Shown here one piece after another: positions 19,106 to 49,327 of a DNA stretch of 54,543 nucleotides. The stretch spans positions 1-54,543 of the forward strand of contig CAYHHK010000009.1 in assembly GCA_964356415.1 (NCBI GenBank). The letters run 5' to 3'. This DNA comes from an uncultured Flavobacteriales bacterium. GTDB lineage: Bacteria > Bacteroidota > Bacteroidia > AKYH767-A > 2013-40CM-41-45. The translations under genes and the position numbers were made by a program. The number at the start of each line of letters is the position of its first letter. Position 1 is the stretch's first letter. The notes under the pieces are model-generated. The model made no database searches. It was not told where the DNA came from and saw only the letters and a list, made by a program, of their open reading frames with translations.

Positions 19106-19112
19106 TTCACTA

Positions 19113-19140
19113 CCCGGAGGCATTCAGCTTCCGGGATTTT
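19113..19140 (+). terminator. Rho-independent terminator
   Basis: CCCGGA (19113-19118) pairs with TCCGGG (19130-19135), followed by ATTTT. Confidence 0.55.
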
Positions 19141-19160
19141 CACTCACTTAAACTATTTGT

Positions 19161-19529: not shown

Positions 19530-19531
19530 CC

Positions 19532-19897: not shown

Positions 19898-20168
19898 GAT
19901 AAAACCTGTTGCTCCGGCGGCAGTGTTTACCGGTGCACAGAGTAGGTTGGATGCGATAATTTTAAGGATGCGCACCCGTAAACCAGAGCCTGAACAACTC
20001 GCCGGAGACGGTGAAATGTTGTTGAGTTTCAACGATGTAAAGCGAATTGTAGATCATCACCTGATGCCCAGTGATATTCTGCGACAAGCGATTCTAATCG
20101 ATTTGAAAGCCCTGGTACAATTAAATGTTAAACTTCGAACAGTTCACAATGAGAAAAACAAAAGTTGA
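19890..20168 (+). CDS. Hypothetical protein (92 aa)
   Basis: It overlaps the upstream stop by 8 nt. No motif was recognised. Confidence 0.55.
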   Translation: MAKIKPVAPAAVFTGAQSRLDAIILRMRTRKPEPEQLAGDGEMLLSFNDVKRIVDHHLMPSDILRQAILIDLKALVQLNVKLRTVHNEKNKS

Positions 20169-20313
20169 ATTTTGGGCATTGATTCCTGATGAGTGGAATT
20201 TTCTCCTTGGAATTGAAAAGACATCCGGCGAGGATGAAGATGGTGTATACGAAGCATTCAGTATGGGATGCTTGTTGTTTGGTTTCAGTATCATTAAATA
20301 CATGTCCCCATGA
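20149..20313 (+). CDS. Hypothetical small protein
   Basis: An internal ATG (MRKTKVEFWALIP) within track ORF 20125..20313 is used as the start. The stop overlaps the next start (ATGA). Confidence 0.45.
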   Translation: MRKTKVEFWALIPDEWNFLLGIEKTSGEDEDGVYEAFSMGCLLFGFSIIKYMSP

Positions 20314-20579
20314 TACTACCTCCATATCAAGATATACCTATCAAGCCGCGTGTCTCGGAAACTTGTGGAAAAGTAGCCTACACTTCACAACGGGAAGCGC
20401 AACGTGTGTTAAACACTGTGCGCACCAAAGTCTGGAGTAAGGGAATCGAGAGAAAGCGAAGAGGGAAAGATGATAAATTACCCAAACGCGCTTATAAATG
20501 TGAATGCGGAATGTGGCATTTAACAAGTCACCACGAACATCCTAATGATGAAGTTATTTTACACCGCAGGAAACATTAA
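20310..20579 (+). CDS. Small basic Cys/His protein, possible zinc-ribbon DNA-binding protein
   Basis: SETCGKVAY...YKCECGMWHLTSHHEH provides C...CxC...H ligand candidates. The central region is Lys/Arg-rich. Confidence 0.5.
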   Translation: MILPPYQDIPIKPRVSETCGKVAYTSQREAQRVLNTVRTKVWSKGIERKRRGKDDKLPKRAYKCECGMWHLTSHHEHPNDEVILHRRKH

Positions 20580-20584
20580 AAAGA

Positions 20585-20616
20585 AAAAGGGGTAGTCGTA
20601 ATGATTGCCCCTTTTT
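20585..20616. terminator. Bidirectional terminator between the convergent gene blocks
   Basis: AAAAGGGG (20585-20592) pairs with CCCCTTTT (20608-20615). An A-run lies 5' and a T-run 3', so the hairpin can work on both strands. It sits between the last plus-strand stop (20579) and the last minus-strand stop (20635). Confidence 0.65.
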
Positions 20617-20634
20617 GCTGTTACTGTGTCTTAC

Positions 20635-23600
20635 TTAGTTGTTCGATGGTTCTGGTTCAGGATCATCCTTGAGCATATCATCCAACCATTCATACTGACC
20701 CTGGCGATACTGTTTCGACGTAACGGTTTTTGCACGATTCCACATCTTCAATCCCGGGATCAGTGGCCTGGATTTAACCCAAACTCTGTTCTCTCCTTTG
20801 AAGGGGCCACTGTGCATTTTTGTATCACCACCCCAGGCTTTTGTAATAGCGTCAGCTAATGTAGCGATATCATTTACAATTGCAACGGCGGGTATAAAAT
20901 TTTTGTTCAATGACTGCAATTCTTGCGGGTTCGAGTAGAAGAAGACGTCAGTTTGAAGCCTGCTGTAAAGATTCAACATGAAATTCATCGACATAAACAT
21001 CGACGTTTTCTTTTTCTTTTCATCGTCTGGTAACATTTTCAATCCACGCAGTAACAGTACAGCCATGATGTTAATGGCAATCAATCCCATCATTTCGGTC
21101 ATATTCTTTCGCAAGTTGGCAGAATCTACATCCGAGTAACCTGCTTCGTTAAAGTGCGTTTTGCCTGTAAATACACGCAATGCTACTTGTTTCAGCATAA
21201 AGAACGATTCCTGCAACACATTCATGTCAGGTGAAACATCTTCTTTTGCCATCTTTTTTGATACAATTTTAGCAGCATATCCTGCGCCTAATCCTACGAT
21301 GCCTCCAATAACTGTCCCAACTCCCGGCAACATCGCGGTTCCTGCCAGCCCCAACGTCACTGCCAGTGTCCCGGGAGTGTAGCTGCGGTATCTTCCTTTG
21401 CGGGTTAATCCGGTGGTGTGGTAATCCTGCGTTCCACCAAATCGAGTATAGAATCCCATCAATGCCCAAGTACGAAACTGCAGGAATAGTTTACCAAGTA
21501 AATAACGACTTACCCGAGTCCGGGAATTTAATCGGTCATAGTTACCGTGACAAATCTGAATTAATTCATCAACAGCAGTGCCGGCATCCAGTAAAGTTTT
21601 ATTGGTACTATGGTTTTCAATGTCGGCAATGTTCTTTTCTGTGCGGTACTCTTCTTTTAAATGACCGTCTTTGCCCATGGCATCCCACAAACTGATTTCT
21701 CCGCCGTGGCCATCTTCCACTTTCGTGTTGCGAAGGATACAGATCATCAATGGCGCCTGGTTTAAATACTCAGTAGATGACTGCAATTTATACGGTGAAA
21801 TTTTATCTACCACTGGCATGAGTTTTTCTTTGAAACTACTCATTGTACCATCGCCTTTAGTTTTGTCGCTGATTTCGTATTGGGTTTCTTTCAAAATATC
21901 CATACGTTGCATCAAATTTCTGATCTTGATTGCATCATGGCTAAACTGATTTACACCGCCCATGGTTTTCCAGAGAATAGAATAAGCATAGGACATATCC
22001 CGGGTGGTGAAAAGTCTTCCATCAGACGCTTCAGTAAAATTTGAAATCAATCCAAATCCAAAGTTTGAGGCTCCTGATGTGAAATTATACCCCATATTCA
22101 GGAGTTGTACAAATCCAAGTAATCCGGTAACTGCAGCTTGCCCGGAGACACCATATTTCAGTTCATCCAATTGATTGGTAAGTACTTCGAAATTCTTTGC
22201 ATACTCTTCAGCGGTAATCTTTCCTTCACTGCGAGCCTGTTCATTGTCCTCGATGATCTGCTCCAATTCTTCAGCTTTCTTTCTTTCATCCTTGCTGGCC
22301 AGCTTTGTGGATTTAGCAACGGCTTTTTCAAAGGATGCCTTTTCTACTTTATATCCGTAGTAAATTTCCATCCAACTATCAGCACTTGCCAAAACGTGTG
22401 CAATTTTCGAAGACTTTTCGATAGCTTTCCTGTTACCCTGATTTCCTTTGGCTTCATCATCATTGGGATGCGTTGCGTACAGTAAATTTCTGCCAATACG
22501 CATGATCATATCAGTCTCCGCCTTGTGCTTGTAAATAACAGCCATGGATGTAAACCCCTTGATTACTTTGCCAACATCAAAAGACTTGCGCATTGCAATA
22601 TCATTGATGATATCCCTGCGCCAATTCTTTAATGTCTCAGTATCCGGATTTTCTTTTTCGTTGTCAATTCGATACTGAATTGTTTTGTACTCCAGGTAAG
22701 CTTTGATTTCCGGATTGTGATTAGCAATGAACTGGGTTTGCAATTTAAAATCCGCCTTTCCAGTGTAAACATCTTTGTGCTGGTAGCCTTCCGGATCCTT
22801 GTTGTCTTCTTTCATCCCGGCACGTACATTTTCCATCATCGAGGAAAACCCTCCGGAAATTCCACCGTCAATAAACTGCTCTGTCAAGTCTTTGTACATG
22901 AAAGGTAGTGTATTGGCGTGCAGTAAATTTGCTTTTTCCGCAGGCAATACTGATTTTAAATCATACATCAAGTCCATGATGTGGTCATACAACGCGCTTT
23001 GGTGAACATTCTGCCGCATTGCTTTGTATTTCTCGTCATAGAAACCGGTTTCCTTGCCATCAACAGATTTCCTGGCCACGGTGATTGAGTATTCTTTCGT
23101 AGGTACGATAAAAGAATCGTTAGTGGCCGCTGTTTGGGCACCATAAAAGATTCGAGCCTCGATGTACGGAGAGTTTTCATTCAGCCATGTATTGTAGGCC
23201 AGTGCAGATTCTGCTACATTATTATATTTCGCATCGAAGAAAACCTTCATGGCGCCAACACCCTCACGGAATCTTTCGATCTGCTCTTCAGCCTGTTCCA
23301 TGACCTTGGCATATTCCTCATCTCCAAGCGTGTTACGAAGCAAATCGTGATGTGCCTGGATTTCTTCCTGGGAAAACGAGATAGGATTCCCGTCTTTATC
23401 CAGTTCAGAATACAACGACGAATCCATAAACAACTTACGATAATCGAGCATCAGGGAGATTTTCTTAATCTTCTTGAAATACTCCTTATTAATTTTAGCC
23501 TTTTGTGACCGTCGTGTTGCGGGATTGGCATACGTTCTTTCCGCATGATCCAGTTTACTTTCACGTTCATTTTCCCATTCATTGAGCAAGTCATGGTAAT

Positions 23601-25056
23601 CTGAAGTGTACCGGGAAATCATGTTACCGGTTTTCCTGTTGTCGGTATTGCTGAATTCCTGCTGCATGAAACTGTACTCGGTGATGTGGCCTTCCTTGAT
23701 TAACTTGTCCAGGTCTTCATTCATCGCATCGAATTCGGCTTTTGCCCGCCGGTTTGCATCCTGGCCCTTTTTGTAAATCAGTTCAGTGATTCGATTATCA
23801 ATGTGGCTGATATCCAACATCAATGATTTTGTTACGCCAATATCTTTGAGCATACTACGCAAGTCTCCGATAATTGTATCCTTACCATACTGCTCTTTCA
23901 TTTCAGTTTTAAGGTAATGTTCTCCGGCCTGCAATAAATCATTCGTATAGTTGTCGCTGATTGTGCGCCAACTTGCAAACTTTGCCAACAAATCTGCGGC
24001 AGCCTGGGAAAATTCCTGGTTGGTATTCTTGGTTGCAGCAAGTTCTGTTGCAGTCCAGAATAATGATGCGCCGTCGTTGCCAACATCGGTTATAGTTTTC
24101 CACAAATTTGTGGTCTTGATCGCCCAGCGCATGTCTTCTTCAGAAATTTCATGGTGGCCTTCAGCATTCGGTGTGGTAAACAATTTCTGTAACCTGGTCA
24201 TGTCTGCTTCAGCAAAAGGAATGATTCCTTCCAGGGATGTGATCATGTTAATGGCGCCAACATCTGCACGAAGATCAGCAATGGTGGTTTTTAATGCGCC
24301 TACCTTACTAAGCATTGTTTCCCGGGCTGTGGCACTTAAATCTTTCTTGCGAAGTTGCAATTCCAGTGTATTCAATGCTGTCTTTAACCGGCTTACTTCC
24401 TGCATCTTCAGGTTGATAACTTCCTGGAATTTCGGTGTACCATTTCTGGGCATGTTCTCGGTCATCGGGGTATCCCAATCAACGACTTCCGAAAAGGTAA
24501 GAAACTCTTCATCGAGAAATTCTTCTTCATTGAAGTCCGGGGTGATGTCATAACTCCGACTTGTGGGATATGCCTGGATTTTATCGTATGGTAGGAAGTC
24601 CCCTTCTTCATTAAAATATCCAAGTGCAGATTCCGTTTCAAACCCCTTGTTTCTTTGACCTTCCGGTAAGCTATAATCGTCCATGGTCTGATACCACCGG
24701 TTTGTACCCGTAGGTGGTCTGGTTTGACTCTGACTTTTTGGAAGATAGTTCCAAGTAATCGTAGGGGTGTAGTTGTCACTCTCACCCACCTGCGCGAATT
24801 CGACTTTGTGATCAGTTCCCTGCGCTTTATTCAATGCAGTGACACGATCCTTTATCAGTCTGGTGTTGTACCCGGAGAATCTATTACCTGTCATTTTTAT
24901 TGCACGCCTGTATTCAAGTTCCGACATCACCGGTGGAATTGTGTACCCATGTGCAATGAAAGCGCGGTAAGCCTCCGTTTGGCTACCATTTAATTGCTTT
25001 ACCATCACACTCCATTGCGGCATCCGGCTATTTGGACAAACTCTCATGTTTCCCAT
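20635..25056 (-). CDS. Large virion/ejection-type protein (1473 aa) with C-terminal membrane segments
   Basis: It starts 5 nt after the stop of the giant ORF. The middle is a long helical or coiled-coil region. The C-terminal hydrophobic, Gly-zipper segments are LAVTLGLAGTAMLPGVGTVIGGIVGLGAGYAAKIV and MGLIAINIMAVLLLRGL. Confidence 0.75.
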   Translation of the reverse strand: MGNMRVCPNSRMPQWSVMVKQLNGSQTEAYRAFIAHGYTIPPVMSELEYRRAIKMTGNRFSGYNTRLIKDRVTALNKAQGTDHKVEFAQVGESDNYTPTITWNYLPKSQSQTRPPTGTNRWYQTMDDYSLPEGQRNKGFETESALGYFNEEGDFLPYDKIQAYPTSRSYDITPDFNEEEFLDEEFLTFSEVVDWDTPMTENMPRNGTPKFQEVINLKMQEVSRLKTALNTLELQLRKKDLSATARETMLSKVGALKTTIADLRADVGAINMITSLEGIIPFAEADMTRLQKLFTTPNAEGHHEISEEDMRWAIKTTNLWKTITDVGNDGASLFWTATELAATKNTNQEFSQAAADLLAKFASWRTISDNYTNDLLQAGEHYLKTEMKEQYGKDTIIGDLRSMLKDIGVTKSLMLDISHIDNRITELIYKKGQDANRRAKAEFDAMNEDLDKLIKEGHITEYSFMQQEFSNTDNRKTGNMISRYTSDYHDLLNEWENERESKLDHAERTYANPATRRSQKAKINKEYFKKIKKISLMLDYRKLFMDSSLYSELDKDGNPISFSQEEIQAHHDLLRNTLGDEEYAKVMEQAEEQIERFREGVGAMKVFFDAKYNNVAESALAYNTWLNENSPYIEARIFYGAQTAATNDSFIVPTKEYSITVARKSVDGKETGFYDEKYKAMRQNVHQSALYDHIMDLMYDLKSVLPAEKANLLHANTLPFMYKDLTEQFIDGGISGGFSSMMENVRAGMKEDNKDPEGYQHKDVYTGKADFKLQTQFIANHNPEIKAYLEYKTIQYRIDNEKENPDTETLKNWRRDIINDIAMRKSFDVGKVIKGFTSMAVIYKHKAETDMIMRIGRNLLYATHPNDDEAKGNQGNRKAIEKSSKIAHVLASADSWMEIYYGYKVEKASFEKAVAKSTKLASKDERKKAEELEQIIEDNEQARSEGKITAEEYAKNFEVLTNQLDELKYGVSGQAAVTGLLGFVQLLNMGYNFTSGASNFGFGLISNFTEASDGRLFTTRDMSYAYSILWKTMGGVNQFSHDAIKIRNLMQRMDILKETQYEISDKTKGDGTMSSFKEKLMPVVDKISPYKLQSSTEYLNQAPLMICILRNTKVEDGHGGEISLWDAMGKDGHLKEEYRTEKNIADIENHSTNKTLLDAGTAVDELIQICHGNYDRLNSRTRVSRYLLGKLFLQFRTWALMGFYTRFGGTQDYHTTGLTRKGRYRSYTPGTLAVTLGLAGTAMLPGVGTVIGGIVGLGAGYAAKIVSKKMAKEDVSPDMNVLQESFFMLKQVALRVFTGKTHFNEAGYSDVDSANLRKNMTEMMGLIAINIMAVLLLRGLKMLPDDEKKKKTSMFMSMNFMLNLYSRLQTDVFFYSNPQELQSLNKNFIPAVAIVNDIATLADAITKAWGGDTKMHSGPFKGENRVWVKSRPLIPGLKMWNRAKTVTSKQYRQGQYEWLDDMLKDDPEPEPSNN

Positions 25057-25061
25057 ACTTA

Positions 25062-28000
25062 TTATCGTTTACAATGTTTCATTAATTCTTCAACTGCTGA
25101 ATCGGAAATATCATACTGCACTGTAGGCCCACCTTCCGGTACCCATCCTGCTTTTTCGATATCGGCATCACTCCAATCAACGGCTACATCATTGGGGCCA
25201 TTCTCCATTCCGCTGGACATGTAGGAGTTTTCTTCTGTCACCCTGGCTCCGCCGGAGTAAAGAATCGCAACTTTCCTTGCCCGGGAAATGGCGGTGTACT
25301 TTAGATTTTGCCTTTCGTAAGACCAATCAGCACCTTTCCACTTTTTCATTTTCAGGTTGTTCTTGCTTTCCATATCCTTCCAATCAACCAAAGCATACTG
25401 AAATTCGGATCCTTGCGCCTTGTGTGAAGTGACGGCGTATCCGTAATCAATATTTTTCTTCGTTTCAGTAGCAGCACCGCTGAAAATAAGACGATCAAAT
25501 TCTGTTTCGCCATTGGCATCAGCTTTGAATAATTCAGCATTTGAAACTCTCCAGGCAGACATTGGTTTGACTTCATTCTTATAACCATAGATACTTTCCG
25601 GCAATTGAAGCACTCGCAAAGTATCGTCCAGAGTGTTTTTAAATGATTCGCGTAATCTCCAATCAACCTTTTTATCGTAGGCTTTCAGGGATAATTCATG
25701 AATCGCTTTAAACAATTCTGTATTCACCCCCGGAGAAGTTGTTGGTATAAACACTCTGAATTCTTCAACATTGTCGCCGGCCTCCATATCGGTTTCAATC
25801 ATACGAAGACTGTAACCAACTGCTTTGAAAACCTGCCCTGCTACTTTAACCGGTCTTTCTGTTTCAAATGTAGATTCAACAACCTGGTAATCTTGCCCAT
25901 TGGAAATTTGAGACTGATCAGTTACCTGATCATAACCCATGATAGTTTCACCAACCTGATACGGGATGCGGCCTTTGTCTTCCAAAAGCATTGCACGCAC
26001 CTGTGAATTGTAGTCTTGCACAGCCCTATTGGTATAGGCAATAATTTTAGCATAAGATTTATTTTCTGCATACTCTTTTGAAGTAAACAATTCACGGATT
26101 CTGTCGATGAATTTAACCTGGGTATTCAAGAATTCGACGCCTTCTCCTTTACTGTTAATAGTCGTGGTGTGTGCGAACTGATCAGCAATCTTTAACAGGT
26201 TCTGGCGAATTGTTGTTGCAATCTCCAAAATCGGATTACCATCTGTCTGCCGTTCAATTTTGGTTAGGTTCGCTGATTGTGATTGACTTAATGCACTGCT
26301 CAACGAATTGTCAAATTTACCCGGAGGTGGAATCTGTGCCGGGTCACCCATGAAGATAACCTGACAACCTTTTTGTGCGGCAGTTCTGATGATGGTATCG
26401 GCATCCTCGGTGTTAACCATGGAACCTTCATCAACAATAATCAATGAACCTGAAACGAATTTCTTGCTCCCGCCGGATATCCATTGTTTGTCAACCAATT
26501 GTTTACTTAACAGACTCGCAACTGTATTGACATCTTTCCCGGCCATGAATCCAATACCTTTTGCACGACGAATCATTCTACGCAAAACTTTTGCTGCGCG
26601 ATGTGTTGGTGCTGCAAGGATGATACTGGGCACACCCCGTTTGGCTTCATACAGTTTGACATACTGCAGTAAAAATTTCACAATAGTTGACTTACCTGTG
26701 CCGGCATAACCGGTTAAAGAGAATCCAACTTGTTTGTGATTTGTGTAAAAGTCTGCCATTGCTTGCAATGCGACTTTTTGTTCAGGATTCAGCGCGATGT
26801 TTTCAGTATCAATCTTGATTCCATCAGCAAACTCGAAGGAATTGGCAATGGGATTGTCCAGATTCTTTATACCCTCGTGGGTCATTGGCCCCAGTTCAGC
26901 ACTGGCTATTGCAAGAATCGCTTTACGATCACCATTGTTTTCATCCCAAGCCATAAGACGGTCAGTTTTTGAACTGAAAATTTTAATCCCGTTTTCTCTC
27001 GATGCAACAACTGTGTAACTACTACCACGATAATCAACAACAGTACTTTGATGATCGTTTGCAAATGACAAATCAGAACCTTTTACCCAATCTTTCTTCT
27101 CGCTGTTATTGTCGAGACTCATTAAAAAGTAATCACCATTGACGTCACTTCTTCCAGAAACCACATAAGGTTTACCCTGGTATGTTACTACTGATCCTTT
27201 TGGGTAAATATCTTTTTTCGCTTTTTCAGCAGCAAACGGTTTGATGGTTTTTATTGGATTACCGACAAGTTCAAATTGAAATTGTGTGTACCCGTCTCCT
27301 TTTATGCGATTATAACCTTCTGCATCCCACCCTTCCAGTTTGCTCCACTCTTCAGCAGTTACATTCTCTACGGGATATGAGTCTGAAGTAGCGCGAACCA
27401 TTGCTACTCTTCCATATTGATCTTCAAATTTGATCAATTCGCCAACCCGCACATCTTTTTGTGCTTGCCGGCTTCTGGAAGTTGCTGTTCTGTCTCCGGA
27501 TAAAATTAAATCCATTGTAGATGCTCCTGCAAATTCTGGACGCATTTTTCTACCACCGGTACCATCCGTAAAATTCATCGGCATGTGGTGCGCAATTTCG
27601 TTAGATGGTGCAACTTTCTTCTGAGCAAACTCACTTCTCAACTCCATGAGTATCCTGGAAAACTCTCTTGACCAGAAAGCGTCGTTACCACCGTGGGTAA
27701 TTTTCTTGTCACCGGTTTCCAGAAGTTCCTCAATCGCTGAAGAATTCGCTTCGAAGGACATCCTCATGGCCTCTTTCATCATCTTGATGTTGTAGCCATC
27801 AGCTTTGTTTACAGTCTTGCCGCTGATCTTTGTACCGGCTTTGCTCCAATCACCCTTGTAAGTTGTTTCGTCAAAGGCGCCGGATTTCCATGTCTGATAA
27901 TAATGCTCGACAGAGAAATATTTCTTTCCGTCTTTTCCAAAGAAAGGTCTGATTGCCAGATTGCTGAGATTTGCATTCTTCCCGGATGAGTGCCACACAT

Positions 28001-31000
28001 GGACTGCATCATCGTTGTTTACTGAATAGGTTCCGAACAGATTAATCGAATGTGTAAGTCCTTCCGCCAGTGCAGAATTGTGTCGGATATTCATTCCGAA
28101 TGATTCCATCAGGTCTGTGAACGCTTCTTTAACTTTTTCCCAGAGTGTTGTAGTAGTGCCGGGGATTGTAATCGTATTGAGAAATTCTCTGAACGTCGGG
28201 TCTGTCAACACCATTGTTGCAAACTCTTGAATATTTTGTATTCCGTAGAATTTCTTTACTGATTCCGGATCCATTTGTGCAATCAATTCTTTAGCGGCCT
28301 GGGTGTCAGTTTCTTTAATTACAGAGTATTCGTTCAATGTTTGCGCAAACTTTGCAAATGCTTTGGATAATTCAGCATCATTTGATATAACATTTCTTGC
28401 CTGATTCATTACATTGATAATACCCTGTACCGCCGTTGCTTGCGTTTCAGTCAAGTTGAACTGCTCAAGGGTTTTTCCTGGGGCCTTAGATTCAAGAAAG
28501 GCCATGTAATTCACAATACTTGTTTTGGTAAGTGCGTGAATTACTTCGTGTAACAGTGTTTTCTGAACGTCTCTTACTGATTTGGTTTCACCGAGTTTAG
28601 TCGTGTTGATAACCATTTGGTGATTATCTGAATGGTAACTTCCTGAAGACCGATAATCCTTAACAATTTCCAGCTTTAATCCTGGTTTGAGGCTGGATAA
28701 ATTCGGTAAAATCTTAATAGCAAGTGCTTTAAGTGAAGCATCTGAAGATGATGTTGCAATTTCCTGTACAATTTTAATCAACTGTGCATTGCCATCGATG
28801 GAGTTTACGAACCCGGCTTCAGCCAGGTACTCTTCTTTGGAGATAGGAATCTTTTCGGCGGATGGATTTACTTTCGGAGCCTCGAAGGTTGTCTTCGCCG
28901 GGGCTGTCGAGTATGTCATTCCAACCTTATTCTGCGCAATGTTCGAGACTGCAGGTACAGTTGCAGGAAGCGCGCTGTTGTATTCCTTCATTCCGAATGC
29001 ACCAAGAGTTTCAAGTCTGACGTATTCTTCACCATTGTATTTGAACAACAGGGCTTTGTTTCCTTTTACTCCTTGCGGATTGTAAAGTGTAACGAAGATT
29101 GGGTAAACAGTTTCGCTTACCTTGTGGTCTTTCAATGCCTGGACACTCAATTTAAAGCGGGTCATCAGCATTGGATTTGCATTATCTACATCATACAGGT
29201 TTGAGCGTTTCACAGAATTGCCATACGAATCTTTTTCAGTGCGTGATACGTCATGATCCGATAATTTGAACTTTACATCGGTGGCGTTGTGCTGAATGTA
29301 CTGGGTCACGAACTGGGAAACTTCCCAGTATTTTGAACCTTCTGCCGGCATTTTGAATATTCCCAAACTGTCTATGGTACTTTTATTCTGAAACAGGCTG
29401 TTGAGATTACTCAAGAATCCCATGGACATCAAATAGCTTTGTGGGATGTATTTTACAAACTGAACGGCCTCTTGTATTCCACCAGACAGATAAATACCGG
29501 CTATGAGTTCCTGTGCAAGTCTGCGGGTATCATAGGCTACACCGTTAAACTCCACACCCAGGTCAACGGGATTCAGAATCATGTCGGTAAAGGCGTTGAA
29601 AGTATCGTTGCTGAAGGCGGCATCTTTTGGAGCAGCCTGCGTTTTAATCATGGTTGGATAACCCTGGTTGCCATCCTTTACTTCAAGCATGGAGATAAAT
29701 GGATTGTTTTTGCCGTATTCGGTTTTCTTCAAAGCCATCACCAATTGTCCAAGCGGTTTGTGCAGATAGACATCCGGGGCCGGGGTAATAGTAAATCTAT
29801 CTTCGGCAACACCGTTTTCTGACATCTGCTGTTCCTTGCGGGTAATATTAAATATTTTACCATCCACAACAAATACACCGGATGCACCTTCAACTTTTAA
29901 TCCAATCCAATCAGTACCCTGTTTGTTTTTCCATACCTCGATAGAATTCCCGTTGGCTACCATTGCTTTTTGCTCCGGGGTTAAATTCACATTGGAGACA
30001 ATTGGTGCGCCATTGGAAGAGTATCTGAAGAATAACCTGCGACGTTCTGCGCCAGCATCGTCAGTGAACAGATGCATACTTGAAGATGCGAAAAGATAGG
30101 ACTTCATCGAGTTCCATAATTCAGTTCTTTGTTCAAGTTCCGCTGTGGTGGACTCGTTATCGATTCCAATTACTCTGGAAAACTCGGTAAAAATCTGCTG
30201 GATTGCAGGATGTTTGTAAGGAAACAAATCACTCCACAATCTGTTGTTGGTAGTGAGTGCGTAGGCAATAGCCTGACCATTCAGGGTTTCAGGTTTAAAT
30301 CTGATTCCGGTGGTATTCATTTCATCAACCTCACTCAAGTCTACAAAAGAATTTTGCTCATCTGGTGTCAACGCGTTGTAAGCATCTCTCTGTTCCTGAA
30401 TGGCAAGATTGTATGCGGTGCCAAGAAGTTTGCCGGCATTCTCTACTGTGGTCGAACCAAACAGACTCTCTGCTTTTTCTTGTTTCAGTATCGATTCAAT
30501 GATACTTTTACCCATTCCTTTTGAGTCAACATTAACAGCAACCTGCACATGTTGCAGTTGTTTACCGTACTCGTCAAGCATCTGAAACTTTTCCAGGATA
30601 GCAATTTGTGTAAGCACGTAGTCGGCGGATGCCTCACCGTTGGTGATCATGTCGATCATCCTGGTGTTGGAAAGTTCGCCTTCTGCTTTTCCCTGAAGCA
30701 TTAATGTACGCTGAAGGAAATCTGCTTCAACATATTCTTTGTTGTAATATTTACTTTTCGGATCCTCAATCAAATCTCGCATGGCCTGACCAACCTTATC
30801 TGGTGTGAACCCGGAGACTGTTGAACTCAACTGGGCAAGTCGTTTAACATAATCAATCAGGATATCCTGCTGGATAAAATTCAGCGTCTCTTCACCAAAC
30901 CCTAGCTGATTCATCAGCTTGACGGTTTTAAAAGTGTACTGATTGATATGGAGCAATCCGAGAATCTGCAATTTCTCGTTGTCAACAGATGCGGATTGGT

Positions 31001-34000
31001 ATCCGGCGATGACGTCGGAAATATAATACTCGCCATCAGCATGTTCCGAAGCGCCGAGTGTTCTTTCGCGGTTTAGAAACCCTTTGGAAGAAACTGAACC
31101 GAATGAAGTGTGCAGATAACGCAGCTTGTCAATGGTTTCTTTCGGGTCAACAATAACTCGTAATCCATCAACTCTCTGGGCCAACGCGTTGAACACGTTG
31201 TCGAGACTAAAAACAGAGATACCATCCTTGCCGGCTACAGCGTTTAAGAATTTAGTACGCTGGTAAGAATCTGAAAGCCCGCTGAAGAAAGGAACTTCTG
31301 CAACAGTCCCTGGTTCGGTGCCACGCGCACCACGTAAAGTTTGAAACTGCCCCGCCTTGTCAACAAGAATCCATTCCCCAAGAGGGTTGGCTACCTGGTT
31401 TTGCACAGCGGGATCAGAATTCTGCATGATGGCCATGTGGACATCCATGATATTGTTCTGCAAAGTTTCTTTCCCTGGTTTGGTTGACCTGGTGAAACTA
31501 TGCTGACCAGTTTCAGAATCGAAATTATGTGTACGATTGTACATGTAAGCGTACAATTTATCAATGTCGAAGTCCATCCCGGTTTGTGTAACCAAATCTG
31601 ATGGGCCTATGATTGTATTTCCGGATTGATTTGGAAGGAATCCGACGATTTCTGCCCAGACATGTGAATTCAATCCCTGGTTCGGGATACGCATCATCAG
31701 CGCCGTGAGAATATCTGACGGTAATTTTGCAGGATCAATTTTTCCATTGCTCATGAAGTTTTTAACATCGAGCAAATTCCCTTCTTTGTCATGGAAATTC
31801 CATGATACCAGAATCTGTGCCGGTAAAATTTTTCCAGTAGCGGGGTCTTGACGTTGTGGTTGTAGCACACCGCCTTTATAATTCTGTGTGTGGATTATTC
31901 CGGTGATTTTCGCAAGTTCTGCAGCACCGTCAGTAGTATCGGAAGCAATAATCTTTGTGGTATATCCGGCATCCGTGGTTGTAACCCAGGAATCTCCGAA
32001 CATTTTACTTTTACGAATCCTGTTATCCACGATGGAATTAAGCAGGGATTCGAATTTATCAGCAGAAGGTGAGAAAGCAATGGTGTCGATGTATTCGTTC
32101 AAACCAAGCATTTCAAGTTCCGGCAACGGATATCCCCGCATCTCGGCCTCGTCCTGGATAATCGTTTTGATTTTGTTTACATCAGGCTGGCCATCGGCGT
32201 CCAGGATTTCTGCAAGGAATTCCCTCTGATGCAGCTTGAAGAGTTCATCGTAATACTTAAAGTACTCGTTCTCGAGTTCTTCACCGGTATATTCTTTTGT
32301 CTGCCCCGGGATTTTAAATCCTTTGACGCGAAGAAGATTGACGAACAGGTTTTTCGAAGCCTGGGTTACACGATTGATTTCGTGCTCAAGCGCGTGGTAA
32401 GGTACTTCCTGCTGAATTCCAAAATACTTTCTCGGAAGAGTCATCACGGTGCCGGAGAAATCAATCTCTTTTGGATTCTTGATTGATCCATTTGCATTAA
32501 AAATCGTGGTAGGATTACGTGGCCCGCCAACCTTGATGGCTGACATAAAGGCTACGCGCTGTACACCCTGGTTCTTCATCGCTATGCGAAGGTTGTCCAG
32601 TTCAAGACCCTGCACCAGTTTAGGTAACAATGCCGTGGCTGAACTCTTGATATAGAATCTTTTGTAGATTCCATTGCTGAATATGTTCCCGGCGGATACC
32701 GGTTTCGATGGCTGGAAAATTATGTGCTGTAATTCTGCCGATAAATCTTCAGCATTTTCATTCACAAATCCCTGCTTGTCAAGCTGACGTTCCTGCTCGG
32801 TGAGGATTCTTGTAGCGGATGCAAATTCTGCATCGCTAAGTTTACCCTGTTTACGCATGATGTGCAACGCTTCCTGCCAGGAAACAAACTCCTGACCATC
32901 AGTGCTGGTAATACCCGCATATTTTTTAGCGAGTCCCGGGCTTAGTCTGGCTTTGTAAGCAGCAAGTTGTGAAGAATCAACACTGTAGTCTTCAACAATC
33001 GCCTGCGTGTAGGTTTCTTTCTGGCTATCTGCGATTTCATTGCGCGGGGCAATGTCTGCAGCAAGACGTTTACCTACGTTGGTAAACAAATCCTGCATTT
33101 CAGTGATCCGGTCTGTAGGTGTAAAGTGCTGACGATACAACTCCTCGGATGTCATCTGTGCAATTTCGACAGCATCAAATCTTTTACTTTCAATCAGGCG
33201 TTTAATAACAGCGTGTTCAGTTGCAGTACGCCCACCTTTTACCTTTGCGTAAGTCGCCGGGTCACCAATGTACATCATGTACGCGTTGGCATTGCCCACC
33301 AGATACTGAACAACCATATCCTGTGCTGCCATGCGAATCTTTTTGGATTCTTCCACGGATGCAACAGTCTTATTATCTTCAAGGAATTCCTTATCGATGA
33401 AAGCGTTCTTTGTTTTCTTGTCAGATTTGCCGATGCCAAAAGTATCCCATTCTGCAGATTTCTGATCAACCAGGGTATTGATGTGTCTGGCCAGAACCTC
33501 TTTGATTTTGGTTTTCATTTCGGTACTCTGCGCTTCGTCACTCAACATGCCATCTTCGGTGAACAACTCATTCATGTTGTTTAACTCCGGGATGAAATGG
33601 AACTTCGAGGCCATGGCTGCATACCCGTCAATATTGTAAGTTTGGTTTGCGTGGCCAGCCTTCAGTGCAGCCTGGTACTGAACTATGCGTTCAATTTCCG
33701 GAAGCACCATCACTTTGTAAAGATTCTCAAGAGCATTTTCAGTCAATGCTCCTTCAGGAGTAACATCAAACATGAATGCTGGCACCTGTAATCCCACGAC
33801 AGTTTTCTTGTCTGACGTCGTGGGGAAAAACAAACGGATAACCCTGTTGTTATTTCCGGACTGATCCGCACTCGGGGACTGCAGATAAGCAATTTTGATG
33901 AATTCGATATCAGCTTCCGGGAGTGTAGGCAGATCATTGTCCTTTTTATTGGGCATGTCGATATTCTTAACCGGTTCAATACTGTTGACCCAGTAATAAA

Positions 34001-37000
34001 AATTCGAAAATCCTGTTCCCTTGGTGGCGATGATGTACTCACCGTTCTCTGCTTTGATTGGTTTCCCGTCGGCGTCTTTCAGGAACATATCCTGGAGCCA
34101 GGTAGAGTGACGATTGAACATCGTCTTATCATATAGATTGGTAGTCAACGTGTTTGTGAATACTTCCTCTTTTGTTTTGACGTTTCTGGACTTATTCAGT
34201 CTGCGAAATTCCTGGGTTTGTGTGGAGATTAACCGGTTCCGGCTAAAAGTTTGAATCGTTTTGCCACGAACTCTGTGCGAATTACTTGCAACCTGATCAG
34301 TAAAACGTGAAGCAAACAAAGCCAGATCTCCGACAACCTTTTCTTTGGTGATTGGGTTGTTGTCTTCCAGGGTGCTTGCTGATCTGTTCTTTACGTTTTG
34401 GTTTAAGATGAAGAACAATCCGTTATTGTTGGTCAGCATGAAACTCAAACTCTGCGGTTGATTACCACGAATGAATCTGCCATCCATTAAGGCATCCAGG
34501 GTATTTGGCGAAAGTTCAATCCCAAACAGGTTTAAATATTCTGACACATCTTCCCTGCTCGGTAATTTCTTGTCTGTACCCTTATAGGCGTCCACCATGC
34601 GCTGATATGTTGCTTCGATGGCTACTCTGCCATCAGCAGAATAAACTGCGCTACCGGGGTTGTCAAGTGGTTCTATTACGAATTCTTTTGACATCAAATT
34701 GTCAGTCCAGTTGCTTTTCAGTGCAGCACCTTCGGCAAACGCATTGCTTGCAGTATCCCGAAGAACATACTTACCGGATTTATCAGTACTCCACATGATG
34801 AACCGAAGAGACATAAAGTGCCCGGTCATGGCATGAACAAACTGATTGCGCAATTGCGTGTCACCGCTTTCAAGCAACGCTACTACATCAGCAGCCCACG
34901 GGTGATGTACTGCCATTTCGTTTTTCAGGAAATCCCGCATGACGATATAATCCGAAGGCAATCCTTCAAGTACCTTTTGCAGTGTATTGAACACTTCATC
35001 AAAAGGTTTGAGTTCCTGGATTCCCAGATAGTTCAGTTTGGGTGAACCATCTTCTTTATACGCCTTGACGGTGGTAAGCATTCGCTTTACCAACACGCCG
35101 GCACTATCCTTTGCATCGTAGGAGAATTCACTGTATTCACTCCAATCATTTTGTTCAGTGCGTTGTGATTCTGCCTTCTCTTCCGAATCTTCAGAATTCA
35201 ATTCCGCAAGTTTCTGACGTTTCGTGGTCAGTTTGAAGTTGTGCGCTTCTTCTGATGGTTTGGAATCAAGATGCGCATTACCGAGTTTGCTTAATGATCC
35301 TTCAGTAAGCGTGACAAGTTGTGCCCAGTTGTCAAGTAATTCTTTATAAGTGGCAGCTTTCAATGTAAATTTATCCACTGAACCCCAATCCTCATTTTTA
35401 GTTGCAGCTTCAATATTGCGAAGCATCTTTGCATGAAGTTCAGTAAACTTTGCTTTGTATTCATCAAAGATTGCTGTAGCATTGATTGCTTTCTTTCCGC
35501 TTTTGAATAATCTGTTCAAGACTTCATTCATCATCATCCCGGTAACAGCCATCTGCTTACGTGCCCCTAATGCTTTAATCAGGTAGGTTCCAGTATTCTG
35601 GGCCATTTCCTGGCTATTCTGGTCAGTGTAATCAGGAATATCTTCCGTGATTGTCGCAGAATTATTGTCGGATCCGGCGTTAAATTCGCCTTCATCTTCG
35701 TATTCTATTTGGGTAGTAGCGGGTTCAGATGACTGTTCAGTTTCTTTGCCAACGACATTCACTTCCGTCAATGATTGCCCAGCAACGGGCTTTGCTGAAC
35801 TGGGAACAACAGTAGTTGCTGCTTCCGCAGGGTCTTCAAATGTGATAACTGGTTGCAGTGTGTATGACCAGACTTTCTTTTCTTCAGTACCCACGTTTGA
35901 CCCTACAACATTCGTTGTCGTCATCCTGGTTGCAAGTTCCCGGTATGGCATCATAGTCGGTTTATCCTCAAGAGTCATCAACACTACCGGAGTATTTTCA
36001 GAAACATGCGCAGTATTCATTGCAAAACGAACTCCTACGTGACTTTCGCTAACCAAGAAGCCTTCAGGTACAGAGGTAGTTACACCATTGGTAACTTTAT
36101 TAACCTTGACAAACAGTGCGTCAAGTGTTTTTTCATTATGCTCATCAGATGTATTGTGTGATGCAAATTTATGATCAAATCCCATACCTCGGGAGAATTC
36201 CAGATTACCATTCTTCATTACAACGACAGGAATATCACTTCCAATAGAGGCTCCACCACCATCTGTATTCAGATACCCAATTTTAGAAGCCTGTCCTAAT
36301 CCATTGGAACGCATCAACACATCGGAATTGCCGATGTTGTAATTGTTGATGAACATTTCCATGTACTGTGCAATACCTTTCTGGGTTAAGATATCGATCT
36401 TTGACTTTTCTCGTATGGCTTTTGCGAATCCGTTGATATCAGTCTTCGAAAGATAGCAGGCCATTGCTGCACGAATTGAATACGCGATAGTACGACCCAA
36501 TTTAGAATCTGCAAGTTTCGTGTTGGTGATTGCAATTGCAGCGTAGATGGGTTGTTTTGTTTCATCATTGAATCCAACAGGAACAACAACGTAACTCCAA
36601 CCATTTTTAATTTCGGTGTTCAACAATTGCCCATCAAAAAATTTATCCTGGCCACTACCCAGCGCAAGCCTGTCACCTTTACCTACGGCAAGAATTAAAT
36701 TCTCGTCTGGCATCAGATCGAATACTGATTTCTTTTCGCCACCAACGGTTTTGAAAAGGTATCCAATGGATTTTGATGTGACTTTGGTTTTAACCGTGTT
36801 GCCTTTGGATTTTTCTGCAAGGATATGACTGCGAAGATTTAAATTTTTCGCCCTGTCTTCTTTTACCTGATCTGTAGTGCCGGCAACATTCTCTGCTTTT
36901 ATCCAGCTTGACGCGTGAACTGCAGCTACTGCATTACCTTCCGGGCCAAGAATCTGTATGGGAACATTCTCTTTATACTCACGCAGTTGCGTGATGTCCT

Positions 37001-45232: not shown

Positions 45233-48200
45233 CTAAATCTTACTACCTACGAAATGCGTGGTGATATCCTCAAGTCTGAATGTATCAGCATTCTCGGAAT
45301 TGATAAATTCCATGGTTATAAGCAATGCAGCACTACGCATTTTGTCGGTGCCGTTGATATTCCTGGGAATGTCATTGTGCCAAATTCTGAATCTTCTGCG
45401 AGTGTTAACAGGTTCAACCAGAGTTACTCTACCGGAATTCTGATACTCGTTCTCGACCTTGATGGTATCGAAGTTTCTCTGCACATCTTCATAAGCTGTG
45501 TTTTCTACCGTAAAGTTGTATTCGTTGGTAGCGTAAACTAACACGGTTTTGGAACCGCTGTTGACGATGTAGGTAAGACTTGAAGGGAAGAATTTATTGT
45601 AAAACCATCCCGGCTTACCAAATCCGTGTGCAGAAACTTCCGTGGATTTATCCAGTGCAGATAGAATGCACTGATCAATCTTATGATAAATGCCCGGAGT
45701 GAAGTCAAAGAAGGTTTCAAATGACTGCATTAATTCGTTGAAGGCAATCGTGAAGGATTGAGCATCGATGGCAACAGGAGGGCCAGGCTGGTCTGTGACG
45801 ATACCTGTAGCCAGGAAAGTAAACAACACCCTGCCATTTTTCGCATCTACTATCAAATGAACTCCGTTTCCGTTCAATGTATCATCCTGCTGAATACAAT
45901 CTACGTCCAAGGCGTTTAAGTCGCTTTGAATACTCTTCATGAAACTTAATGGGACAGTCTCGTTTTTTGCATAGGTTTTGCCGGAGATCGTGTACATCCC
46001 AATCTTGTTATTCAGGGCATCATAGTAATACAATGAATCTTTCGTCACCCCGGCAAGTACCATTGCAAACCGGTGCATACATCCACTCTTAGTGGTAATG
46101 TATTTGAAATCATCCAGTAATCCGCCCTTGCCAATGGTCATTGCGACCCCGAGTTCATCAGGAATTGTCAGCACTTTCTCGTTTACGGATACAACTCCCA
46201 GTGCCCTATCCTGGGCAAAGATCAGGGCATCTTCGAAAATCTGCAGATTGTTGATTGGGCCATGTGCACCATTGACGTCGATTTTTGTTCCCGCCAGAAA
46301 GTGTGTCCATGAATCAATTTCTTCATTCGCGCTTTTCACCAGGCTGGCCATGATCCGGCAATCAAAAACTCTATTGTCAGAAAATAACAACGGTTTTGGA
46401 AAATATTTTGTGAGATCAGCTTGTTTTGAATACACGGTGTTGTACAAATACAAATCCGTGGATTGCGTAAAATAGGTGGGGCCAGAACCCTGTATCCAAC
46501 TACCTGCAGTTTCCCGCATACAATCCCACCCAAGCCCGGAGGCGACTAAGCGGTGAGGAGATTTATCGTGGCGAAGAGCGAGATTGATTGTTGTCTCCAC
46601 TGGAATATTAACCACGCTGGCATTCAACGCAGAACCATCCGGGAATAATCTCAAATTCTCAAAGTAATCAATGAAGGTATCGCCACCAAAAACATTGATG
46701 TAGTTATGCAAAACTGTAGATGGCTGCATACAGGTTTGGTACATGCTGAATGTTCGAGCCTCACTGGTTTGTCCACCATAAGGGATGATTGCACGTTCAT
46801 AGTTTACAATCCTACTTTGCCGAAGTTCTGTTATTTCAGAAGTAAATGTGATCCAGGCTTTGTCCAGATTCGTCACAAGATTTGTGCAAAAATAGGCACG
46901 AGGATGCACATCATTATTTGTCAATGCGCCGTTCCATTCCCAACAGTAATTTATGTAGGGGATATTCGGGCCAACAATAATCTTTGTTTCACTGGATGGG
47001 GGAACAATCTTTGCGTCAATAACGGCAATCTTCTCCCAATTAGGTGAAGGTGTTAGTGTGTAAGCTTTATGATTATACTGTTGCGCATTACTTTCGGGAT
47101 AGTCTGAATGACATTGTGCCGTACCCTGAATTCTTAATGAGTCTCCGCCAACTGGTTTAAGATTCTTGAAAAAGCTGATCTCCGGGGATATAAAGTTTCC
47201 GAGTTTATTATTTTCCAGTTCGGTTATTCTGGGAACCCAGCAGTTCTTCGCAGAAGCTGTTGCATCATAGGCAGACTTCCAGTACCCTTGCGCAAGAATA
47301 GTTTTATCCCACTCCTCACGTTTACACCGTACTACCTGATAACTAACAGCATCCGGCGGCATGTTCTTTACTTTCACCTGAAGCGAAAGAATGTTAGCGT
47401 ACACATTATTATTAACCGCAGAGTTGCCATAAAAAGTAGAAAAGTCAGTGTAGTTTACACCATTAAATGAATATGTTGTGCGGGTATCGTTTTCATAAAT
47501 TGCCGGGAATTTGATATCACCAATCCATTTAACAAATGATGCACGTCCTTTTGTGTCTTTAAAAATGAGGCCTACTCTGTAAATCTCATCACGCATCCAT
47601 CCCATTTTATTCATCACATTAAATGGGCTGGCGTAGCTGGTGTAAGAAGGGTTGTCCACGGTATTTTCCCGTGGTACGCCAAGTCTGGTTAAATTTGATG
47701 TGTTTGCTACAATTCCTGTATTGTCAATTAGCATCGGAGTCAGCTTGAATCGATAAGATGTATTGGGGCCTTCTCCTCCCAGTTCATTCGCCAGGTTATA
47801 GGCGAATCCCGGGTCAAGAATTTCTGAAGGACGTTGAAGTTCTTTCGACAATCCGCAGTCATGATTCTCCGGTATTACTTGCCCGGTGATTTTGAAATCA
47901 GTTGTAACCGTGTCAGAAACGCCTGAAGAATTAAGTACACGCGCATATTGTCCAGCGCCTTTGTTTCTTGTAAACCGGTATGCCCTGGCATCGAAGATCG
48001 GGTCATAAAAATCCTGGGTAATGTTTGCAGGAAACAGCATATTGTCCTTAATCTCAAATGTCTTACAAGTGAAATCCGTTAATCCAAGACTTACAAATTC
48101 AGCAGAAGTAATCGATCCCAAGGAATCCCCGGTGTCGTTAAATCGAATTGTACCCATTGGCGGAATGGCACACTCCTTTACAATATTGATTGTCGGAGTA

Positions 48201-49327
48201 CCTTCAAAGGCATTATACCAAATCGAAACAACTCTGATAAAATCAAAAGTGCGATCTAGGTTGTTAATCTCCACCGTGATAAACTTTCCGCTTAACTGGT
48301 CAATGGCGCGTCCTGTGTAAAGCTGCGAGTCTGTGAGTTTATCGTTATCTGCAGTGATGTGTACGAATCCGGTAGGAGTGCTGTATGAAGATTGATTGCC
48401 GTGCAAATTGAACATGGAGTATGCATATTGCACAACACCGGTTTGATATCTTCCGCCAGCGCCAATGTCAATTGGTTTTATTGTGGCAAAATTACTGTTG
48501 GGTACAATCTCCAGTTTACACATCGGATACCCCAGTAACCGGGAATCAAAAATGTTTACGTGACGGAATGTGTTTATGGTATCTGTAAAATATACTTTAC
48601 CAATTTCCGGTGATTCGTAATTAGTTTTTGCCAATACACGGTGAGACATGGAAAAGTTAAACGCATTGTGGCTGGCCAAATGCGCTCCCGGAACCAAAAA
48701 GTTCTCAACAGTGTCCAGGGCTTTTCCGGTTTTCTTGCTGATCTTCATCTTCCAAATCTGACCATATTCACCGGTGGTTGAAAAGATTATCAACCAATCA
48801 CGTAGATTGGCACTTCCCACAATCTGTGGATTGGTTTGCGTGGGAACTGTTTTTGAAATACTGGTGCGTGGGCTGGGGCCGGTTTCTGTCAAATTGGTTA
48901 CAGTAACCGTAAGCGTTTCACCTAATCCTACGATTTTTATGAAGTCCTGGCAGTTGAAAATTCGGAACTCATTGTTTACAATATGGCTATTGTATGAACT
49001 AATCAGTTGATTGTACAAAGCACCTACGCTGGTATCGACATTAATCGGCCCTGATGCAAACCCATTGATGCGAATCATGGTAGAAATTCCAGAAGGATGA
49101 TTCGGGTCTTCAGGTGTTACACGCAACTCATACATGCCGGCGATAGAGGAAGGTAGTTTAAAACTAAGATTCATGCCATTCTCATTCATCACATTCCCGG
49201 TAGATAAACCGTGGTTAGTGAGGATCCGAATATTCTTTGCATGATAATACTTAGTGTTCGAGTATTTATTTCGAGCAGTGTCCCTGTCCATCCCACCCAT
49301 GTAGGTGTTAACCGTTGAGTTTGTCAT
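45233..49327 (-). CDS. Large tail-associated structural protein (1364 aa)
   Basis: The call rests on its size and its position before the cargo genes and the giant ejected protein. The N-terminus is MTNSTVNTYMGGMDRDTARNKYSNTKYYHAKNIRIL. No enzymatic motif was recognised. Confidence 0.75.
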   Translation of the reverse strand: MTNSTVNTYMGGMDRDTARNKYSNTKYYHAKNIRILTNHGLSTGNVMNENGMNLSFKLPSSIAGMYELRVTPEDPNHPSGISTMIRINGFASGPINVDTSVGALYNQLISSYNSHIVNNEFRIFNCQDFIKIVGLGETLTVTVTNLTETGPSPRTSISKTVPTQTNPQIVGSANLRDWLIIFSTTGEYGQIWKMKISKKTGKALDTVENFLVPGAHLASHNAFNFSMSHRVLAKTNYESPEIGKVYFTDTINTFRHVNIFDSRLLGYPMCKLEIVPNSNFATIKPIDIGAGGRYQTGVVQYAYSMFNLHGNQSSYSTPTGFVHITADNDKLTDSQLYTGRAIDQLSGKFITVEINNLDRTFDFIRVVSIWYNAFEGTPTINIVKECAIPPMGTIRFNDTGDSLGSITSAEFVSLGLTDFTCKTFEIKDNMLFPANITQDFYDPIFDARAYRFTRNKGAGQYARVLNSSGVSDTVTTDFKITGQVIPENHDCGLSKELQRPSEILDPGFAYNLANELGGEGPNTSYRFKLTPMLIDNTGIVANTSNLTRLGVPRENTVDNPSYTSYASPFNVMNKMGWMRDEIYRVGLIFKDTKGRASFVKWIGDIKFPAIYENDTRTTYSFNGVNYTDFSTFYGNSAVNNNVYANILSLQVKVKNMPPDAVSYQVVRCKREEWDKTILAQGYWKSAYDATASAKNCWVPRITELENNKLGNFISPEISFFKNLKPVGGDSLRIQGTAQCHSDYPESNAQQYNHKAYTLTPSPNWEKIAVIDAKIVPPSSETKIIVGPNIPYINYCWEWNGALTNNDVHPRAYFCTNLVTNLDKAWITFTSEITELRQSRIVNYERAIIPYGGQTSEARTFSMYQTCMQPSTVLHNYINVFGGDTFIDYFENLRLFPDGSALNASVVNIPVETTINLALRHDKSPHRLVASGLGWDCMRETAGSWIQGSGPTYFTQSTDLYLYNTVYSKQADLTKYFPKPLLFSDNRVFDCRIMASLVKSANEEIDSWTHFLAGTKIDVNGAHGPINNLQIFEDALIFAQDRALGVVSVNEKVLTIPDELGVAMTIGKGGLLDDFKYITTKSGCMHRFAMVLAGVTKDSLYYYDALNNKIGMYTISGKTYAKNETVPLSFMKSIQSDLNALDVDCIQQDDTLNGNGVHLIVDAKNGRVLFTFLATGIVTDQPGPPVAIDAQSFTIAFNELMQSFETFFDFTPGIYHKIDQCILSALDKSTEVSAHGFGKPGWFYNKFFPSSLTYIVNSGSKTVLVYATNEYNFTVENTAYEDVQRNFDTIKVENEYQNSGRVTLVEPVNTRRRFRIWHNDIPRNINGTDKMRSAALLITMEFINSENADTFRLEDITTHFVGSKI

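Follow-up and report, generated by a model that had tools for sequence, protein, structure and literature searches.

A 54,543-nucleotide contig deposited under an uncultured Flavobacteriales bacterium (CAYHHK010000009.1, GenBank assembly GCA_964356415.1; hereafter the window, meaning this whole stretch) contains, on its minus strand, an open reading frame (ORF) of 5181 amino acids (aa) that is a fused cargo polyprotein with a virion RNA polymerase (RNAP) module. A segment of this protein ending in the motif DFDID is very probably the metal-binding catalytic loop of a DNA-dependent RNAP that has two barrels in a single chain and belongs to the crAss-like virion RNAP family, the prototype of which is gp66 of phage phi14:2. 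The finding places the window among crAss-like phages, as a divergent one, and corrects the annotation of its largest gene. A giant protein bearing a DxDxD motif is an already published hallmark of crAss-like phages, and RNAP genes that reach about 6000 aa are given as a hallmark in a review of the Crassvirales; the window protein is a divergent new example. Its lineage is distant from cultured phages, with about 25% identity to gp66 or to Flavobacterium phage Fpv1, the nearest metagenomic cluster is 45% identical, and the family to which it belongs is very large. The assignment is carried by homology, motif invariance, agreement with the fold of a solved polymerase (PDB 6VR4) and synteny, all observed for the window protein itself.

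Homology, conservation and fold of the polymerase core

Translated on the minus strand, positions 31560-31697 give MMRIPNQGLNSHVWAEIVGFLPNQSGNTIIGPSDLVTQTGMDFDID, which is aa 2971-3016 of the 5181-aa ORF, and the plus-strand reading of the same positions is interrupted by stop codons. The first-pass annotation had quoted this peptide, together with a further six residues at its end (KLYAYM, encoded at 31542-31559), as a mirror of the catalytic double-psi beta-barrel (DPBB) loop of the cellular RNAP subunit beta-prime, and translation confirms that the peptide is real. DFDID is the single DxDxD in the whole protein. At 5.7% Asp and 5181 residues, about 0.97 DxDxD and 0.04 DFDxD are expected by chance; the motif by itself is thus not beyond chance, and its significance comes from homology and conservation.

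When aa 2001-3833 are compared with all PDB sequences by phmmer, the sole match is 6VR4 chain A (E 2.8e-20), the DNA-dependent RNA polymerase gp66 of the crAss-like Cellulophaga phage phi14:2 (Drobysheva et al., bioRxiv 10.1101/2020.03.07.982082 / Nature 2021). In this alignment query LTALMMRIPNQGLNSHVWAEIVGFLPNQSGNTIIGPSDLVTQTGMDFDIDKLY is paired without gaps with gp66 LRAIGYRIPNQGQSSNDPLQIVGILPEAMGDTIVAYTEIPTKTGSDFDIDKMY, and RIPNQG...DFDIDK stands in register with YRIPNQG...DFDIDK of gp66, whose motif is 1361-DFDID-1365. A profile made from 16 family members (alignment A1) matches 6VR4_A with an E of 2.5e-64 over chain residues 1010-1702, and BLASTP against gp66 (E 1.9e-21) begins its alignment at gp66 residue 955, or aa 2563 of the window protein. 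The homologous stretch around the motif amounts to roughly 800 aa. By the boundaries published for gp66 (Connector 1095-1238, bridge helix 1529-1559 and trigger loop 1598-1636; bioRxiv 10.1101/2020.03.07.982082), the match to residues 1010-1702 takes in both barrels, the Connector, the bridge helix and the trigger loop. Neither phmmer nor BLASTP aligns anything N-terminal of gp66 residue 955, which is where the Cleft-blocking domain (gp66 196-233) falls.

A word-indexed protein search gave just 2 matches, and an exhaustive HMMER search was needed to reveal the extent of the family. With aa 2550-3450 as the query, this search returned 2841 homologue clusters (at 50% identity) at E<=1e-3, of which 751 reach E<=1e-30; the best match other than the protein itself is the metagenomic cluster mentioned above, and homologues reach 7385 aa, many of them falling between 4000 and 7385 aa. 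Conservation was counted in 151 retrieved homologues. In 144 of them R[IVL]P[TNS] is followed by D[FY]DxD, with a constant 44-residue span to the end of the motif; six of the remaining seven keep a DFDxD, and the last, P0002, is a fragment that stops short of the loop. MAFFT was used to align 152 core regions at most 50% identical to one another, among them those of phi14:2, cr118_1, Fpv1, crAss001 and p-crAssphage; in this alignment R2973, D3012, D3014, D3016, Q2749 and G2871 are invariant, K2635, K2654, K2692, G2694, I2974 and P2975 are 99% conserved, and D3209, N3222, T3225 and G3236 are conserved to at least 92%. The three lysines are also invariant in alignments A1 and A2. The phage-database records that match the core, 124-133 in number, are every one from crAss-like phages.

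The predicted structure agrees with this picture. For aa 2600-3300, the AlphaFold2 model based on A1 (mean predicted local distance difference test score, pLDDT, 77; predicted template modelling score, pTM, 0.76) was compared with the PDB by Foldseek and matches 6VR4_A with an E of 2e-25 and a TMq of 0.68 over 769 columns; no other match falls below 1e-3. The weaker matches (E 0.01-0.14) are nearly all largest subunits of RNAP I/II, QDE-1 (5FSW), P23-45 gp96 (8H2M), P74-26 gp62 and AR9 beta-prime. Among the predicted viral structures of BFVD there are 45 matches at E<=1e-3; nearly all of these proteins come from crAss-like or uncultured phages, and several are labelled only 'DNA helicase'. Set against 6VR4, the core is predicted to comprise two DPBBs with a connector between them, followed by a bridge helix and trigger loop (Table 1). 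In the beta-prime-like barrel (DPBB-A) the DFDID loop is enclosed by model strands at aa 2868-2878, 2930-2935, 2968-2972, 2982-2991, 2998-3001 and 3017-3022. The start of the gp66 Connector aligns near a QQ motif at aa 2732-2733, so the boundary between barrel and Connector is uncertain by about 45 residues. The first-pass annotation had looked to two outcomes that would overturn its reading, a modelled region that is not a DPBB and a DFDID that is not conserved among homologues; we find instead a model that matches the solved two-barrel core of 6VR4 and three Asp that do not vary.

The same annotation could not identify the second, beta-like and Lys-containing barrel (DPBB-B) by eye. Homology to gp66 and the conserved lysines, on which its predicted location rests, place it about 280-390 aa upstream of DFDID. 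In addition to K2635, K2654 and K2692, this region carries G2694 and Q2749 and the motifs QPSKPV, YIKSS, IKVGG and GIQQEVP, and model strands run through aa 2634-2654, 2691-2693 and 2729-2745. The two-barrel core spans about aa 2625-3235, and the range of about 2700-3200 first proposed for structural comparison was roughly correct.

Relation to cellular beta-prime and weighing of the assignment

Several results weigh against reading the segment as part of an RNA polymerase. Identity to gp66 in the core is just about 25% by BLASTP. The polymerase part is unrecognised by Pfam, NCBIfam and any named PHROG, the only hit being PHROG 16227, 'virion structural protein'. A model of DPBB-B in isolation (aa 2622-2768, pLDDT 83) has a best E of 1.1 against the PDB, with no polymerase among the matches, and this search is uninformative; its N-terminal cut was perhaps made too late, because the BLASTP alignment to gp66 starts at aa 2563. 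Finally, when the family profile is set against E. coli RpoC and RpoB, hhalign gives a probability of 0.1-0.5, which is not significant, and in a Smith-Waterman comparison of the loop with RpoC 331-520 the score is reached or beaten by 295 of 500 shuffles.

These last comparisons, along with the lack of any match to Pfam RNA_pol_Rpb1 in the giant protein, bear on the resemblance to beta-prime R-A-P-T-L-H...D-F-D-G-D that was proposed at first. The form of the pattern and the spacing stand: from R to the first Asp the distance is 35 in E. coli beta-prime (R425 to D460) and 39 in the window protein (R2973 to D3012), the latter equal to gp66. Sequence similarity is undetectable by hhalign or by the 500 shuffles, and a demonstrable resemblance to beta-prime in the sequence itself is rejected; the link to beta-prime therefore runs via the crystal structure of gp66. 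The protein is not in the beta-prime family but in the crAss-like virion RNAP family, which the gp66 structure places in the two-barrel superfamily. The reading of the segment as a beta-prime-like DPBB catalytic loop is supported, through gp66 homology, the invariance of the motif and a model that superposes on 6VR4. This evidence also decides against a chance occurrence of RxP...DFDID in a very long protein. That about one DxDxD is expected from composition, and that shuffled sequences score as well as the loop when paired with E. coli beta-prime, would be in keeping with chance; a match to 6VR4 at 2.5e-64 with the motif in register, motif residues that are invariant in 152 homologues and a fold that agrees with 6VR4 are not, and we give this explanation practically no weight.

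In gp66, replacement of any of the three Asp of DFDID by Ala abolishes Mg2+-dependent RNA synthesis, the protein is packaged in virions, and early phi14:2 transcription resists rifampicin (bioRxiv 10.1101/2020.03.07.982082). From phi14:2 and crAss001 we infer Mg2+ binding, polymerase activity, packaging, ejection, a role in early gene expression and cleavage for the window protein. D3012, D3014 and D3016, on the loop of the beta-prime-like barrel, would chelate the catalytic Mg2+, and the loop would face the beta-like barrel, whose K2635, K2654 and K2692 would join the active site and contact nucleic acid or nucleoside triphosphate. The helical connector would join the two barrels, with the predicted bridge helix and trigger loop coming after. 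By analogy with phi14:2 and crAss001, the protein would be made late and packed in the capsid as cargo, and would leave, partly unfolded, through the tail and muzzle alongside the DNA; the ejected enzyme could then transcribe early phage genes without the rifampicin-sensitive polymerase of the host. The 5181-aa polypeptide may be cut into separate parts.

Conservation also bears on the idea of an inactive pseudo-polymerase, that is, a purely structural or ejection cargo that keeps the fold and the motif and makes no RNA. Relatives are labelled 'structural protein' or 'virion structural protein' in databases, residue four of the motif is Ile and not Gly, and in the gp66 crystal the DFDID loop has a conformation incompatible with Mg2+ binding (bioRxiv 10.1101/2020.03.07.982082), all of which would fit such a protein. 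However, the window protein retains all family-invariant residues, including the three Asp, R2973 and the three Lys; such strict conservation among 152 sequences with mutual identities of 50% or less points to selection on catalysis; and gp66, with the same DFDID, is active in vitro. We regard a pseudo-polymerase as extremely unlikely.

Fused modules and genomic context

The polymerase core is one of several modules in the giant ORF (Table 1). Besides its Pfam matches, the C-terminal superfamily 1B (SF1B) helicase is recognised by PHROG as Dda-like (1.2e-70), by NCBIfam as RecD2 (9e-30) and in the PDB by Dda (3UPU) and RecD2 (3E1S), and its motifs are intact: Walker A GTGKS (4636), Walker B VDEGSM (4725), GDPAQ (4754) and HKAQG (5062). 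By phmmer with the individual segments, 70 of the 151 relatives have the zincin region, 21 (about 14%) the helicase and 4 the NADAR-like region. The helicase fusion explains why the relatives cr118_1, cr50_1 and cr124_1 are labelled 'DNA helicase' and not RNA polymerase. Merging of the RNAP with its two neighbours into a huge, probably cleaved polyprotein has been noted in some phages, and one of these neighbours, gp65 of phi14:2, is reported to carry a zincin-like protease (bioRxiv 10.1101/2020.03.07.982082).

At the other end of the protein, the N-terminal region of about 1600 aa (aa 1-1650; 36108-40607, minus strand) has no family match and is low in complexity and rich in Ala, Pro and Thr near aa 830-900. 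This region was found by phmmer in just 20-39 of the 151 relatives, and BLASTP detects no similarity between it and phi14:2 gp078.

The occurrence of polymerase and helicase in one chain raises the question of which template the enzyme uses. In vitro, gp66 transcribes only single-stranded or denatured DNA (bioRxiv 10.1101/2020.03.07.982082), and its nearest structural relative is QDE-1 (bioRxiv 10.1101/2020.03.07.982082; PMC10770324), which takes both DNA and RNA templates and depends on a helicase and RPA. These properties, along with the SF1B helicase in the same chain, could suggest an enzyme that works mainly on single-stranded DNA or RNA templates in a QDE-1- or primase-like manner, for example by priming replication with the helicase, and is not an early transcriptase. 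We consider this very unlikely: the phi14:2 enzyme is tied to rifampicin-resistant early transcription in vivo, the replication block of the window has a primase and a DnaB-like helicase of its own, and the helicase is fused in just 21 of 151 relatives and so is not integral to the role of the enzyme.

For an early virion RNAP, our preferred reading, the fused helicase could instead serve transcription. It may conceivably open the incoming double-stranded genome and pass a single-stranded template to the polymerase, a parallel to QDE-1 with the helicase QDE-3, and we put this forward only tentatively, as a suggestion that is rather less likely to hold than to fail. The literature searched contained no description or test of such RNAP-helicase coupling. 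If it is true, the fusion offers a testable answer to how a polymerase that prefers single-stranded DNA starts on injected double-stranded DNA, and the recurrent RNAP-helicase fusion is the sole part of the present findings that might repay more work. We further speculate that the zincin-like module would process the polyprotein and that the NADAR-like module would act in counter-defence, both being co-injected.

The genes around the giant ORF are those expected of a crassvirus. Upstream on the same strand, in addition to the muzzle and ring proteins, lie three ORFs of 289, 499 and 708 aa, one with a weak match to cargo protein 1 (CARG1). In crAss001 the order is ring protein R1 (gp43), muzzle (gp44), cargo proteins (gp45 and gp46) and the RNAP-associated gp47, gp49 and gp50, and these proteins were detected in virions by mass spectrometry and assigned to the capsid cargo zone (PMC10172136). 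The order in the window, namely ring 2, ring 1, muzzle, cargo-like ORFs and giant ORF, is that of crAss001 gp43 to gp50. The 1473-aa ORF downstream of the giant ORF, which resembles a neighbour of the phi14:2 RNAP gene (gp076 in GenBank, gp65 in the paper), is probably a co-packaged cargo protein.

Table 1. Features of the giant ORF and of the rest of the window
Feature	Position	Strand	Basis or remark
Giant ORF, 5181 aa	25062..40607	-	ORF list and translation; zero internal stops
Beta-like barrel (DPBB-B), predicted, about aa 2625-2755	32343..32735	-	Aligns with gp66 about 996-1094, N-terminal to Connector; start may be further upstream, near aa 2560
K2635	32703-32705	-	Near-invariant, DPBB-B
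K2654	32646-32648	-	Near-invariant, DPBB-B
K2692	32532-32534	-	Near-invariant, DPBB-B
Helical Connector between barrels, about aa 2775-2865	32013..32285	-	Model helices; boundaries approximate
Beta-prime-like barrel (DPBB-A), about aa 2866-3025	31533..32012	-	Model strands; after gp66 Connector in profile alignment; boundaries approximate
RIPNQG, aa 2973-2978	31674..31691	-	Conservation; Arg-x-Pro strand of beta-prime-like barrel, 39 residues before first Asp
DFDID, aa 3012-3016	31560..31574	-	Aligns to gp66 motif; predicted Mg2+-chelating triad D3012/D3014/D3016
Bridge helix, aa 3113-3143	31179..31271	-	Single 31-residue model helix (positions 514-544); aligns with gp66 1529-1559
Trigger-loop region, about aa 3196-3235, ISDVIAGYQSASVDNEK...	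30903..31022	-	Aligns with gp66 1598-1636
SprT/zincin-like metalloprotease region	28518..28655	-	Pfam SprT-like, weak (E 0.011, 16.0 bits against a cut-off of 25.6)
HEVIH (HExxH), aa 4020-4024	28536-28550	-	Motif within SprT-like region
NADAR-like region, tentative, aa 4225-4317	27657..27935	-	Pfam NADAR (PF08719), E 5.7e-5, 23.9 bits, below 35.1-bit cut-off
C-terminal SF1B (RecD2/Dda-like) helicase, about aa 4601-5120	25248..26807	-	Pfam AAA_30 5.9e-26 (above cut-off), AAA_19, PIF1, UvrD_C_2
Ring protein 2	50586-51317	-	CrAss_Ring_2, on identical contig
Ring protein 1	49334-50089	-	Pfam CrAss_Ring_1
Crassvirus muzzle protein	45233..49327	-	Pfam crAss_MUZ E 1.2e-178, crAss_MUZ_C
1473-aa ORF downstream of giant ORF	20635..25056	-	BLASTP E 6e-19 to gp076 residues 978-1421
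LAGLIDADG-type homing endonuclease ORF	223-1188	+	Pfam LAGLIDADG_3, 2.3e-9
Family A DNA polymerase, C-terminal part only	1276-1980	+	Pfam positions 162-379 of 381, E 3e-41; directly after LAGLIDADG ORF
GIY-YIG and NUMOD-like (I-HmuI-like) homing endonuclease ORF	8209-8961	+	Inside replication block; second mobile endonuclease of the window
408-aa ORF	14445-15671	+	Weak prokaryotic JAB-domain match (E 2e-4, below cut-off); PHROGs of unknown function
Strong terminator-like hairpin, 9 pairs, 7 GC	19113-19135	+	Directly after last long plus-strand ORF

A replication block occupies the plus-strand half of the window and includes a SNF2/DEAD-type helicase, a DnaB-like helicase, a primase, an exonuclease and a fragment of the family A DNA polymerase (PolA). 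The PolA gene looks as if it is split by an intron or by insertion of a homing endonuclease, as reported in crAss-like phages, in which case its N-terminal exon would precede the start of the window; the Rfam scan found no group I intron at the gathering score, and tRNA and Rfam scans of the window gave no matches. The terminator-like hairpin lies just inside a stretch of short ORFs, about 1.5 kb long, where the replication and cargo blocks converge, and this convergent intergenic region (19105-20635) holds nothing else of note. Megablast against phage genomes gave no match. An identical muzzle protein occurs in four public metagenome assemblies or runs (ENA ERZ4201063 and ERZ4201064; Logan ERR3856787 and SRR24858483); the phage itself, or one nearly identical to it, has therefore been sampled several times.

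Comparison with known two-barrel polymerases

The window protein shares with the cellular subunits beta-prime and beta (RpoC/Rpb1 and RpoB/Rpb2) the pattern R-x-P-T/N...D-F-D-x-D and the predicted arrangement of three Asp on one barrel facing Lys of the other. Its motif, GMDFDID, differs from the NADFDGD of RpoC/Rpb1 in having Ile for Gly at position 4, as does gp66, and in lacking Asn-Ala. Unlike the cellular multisubunit RNAPs, it has both barrels in one chain and has no alpha or omega partners. This fused two-barrel architecture with a connector is also that of the eukaryotic QDE-1 family, whose polymerases act in RNA interference, and of P23-45 gp96/gp64 and YonO. The structural matches to QDE-1 (5FSW) and P23-45 gp96 (8H2M) are weak, however (Foldseek E about 0.08-0.11, TM 0.13-0.14), with no detectable sequence similarity and a different biological context.

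Among crAss-like phages the likeness is closer. The 4401-aa 'structural protein' of Fpv1 (PHROG 16227) can be aligned for about 1000 aa, with 26% identity and an E of 6e-59, and the 4946-aa 'DNA helicase' of the uncultured phage cr118_1 has an RNAP core followed by a C-terminal SF1B helicase, in the same order as in the window protein. Fpv1, cr118_1, p-crAssphage gp44 and crAss001 gp50 all have R[IV]P[TN] ahead of D[FY]DxD; the motif varies, being DYDID in Fpv1 and DFDVD in crAss001 and p-crAssphage, and the domain complements of these proteins differ from that of the window protein. It is with gp66 that the agreement extends furthest: a single chain with two DPBBs and a helical connector, an identical DFDID, whose first Asp lies the same 39 residues after the start of the RIPNQG strand, alignable bridge helices and trigger loops, and a location in the crassvirus cargo/transcription block. 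However, gp66 is a separate protein of 2180 aa encoded between separate genes for proteins of 1797 and 1421 aa, whereas in the window the upstream partner and the zincin-like, NADAR-like and SF1B helicase modules are joined to the polymerase in one 5181-aa ORF.

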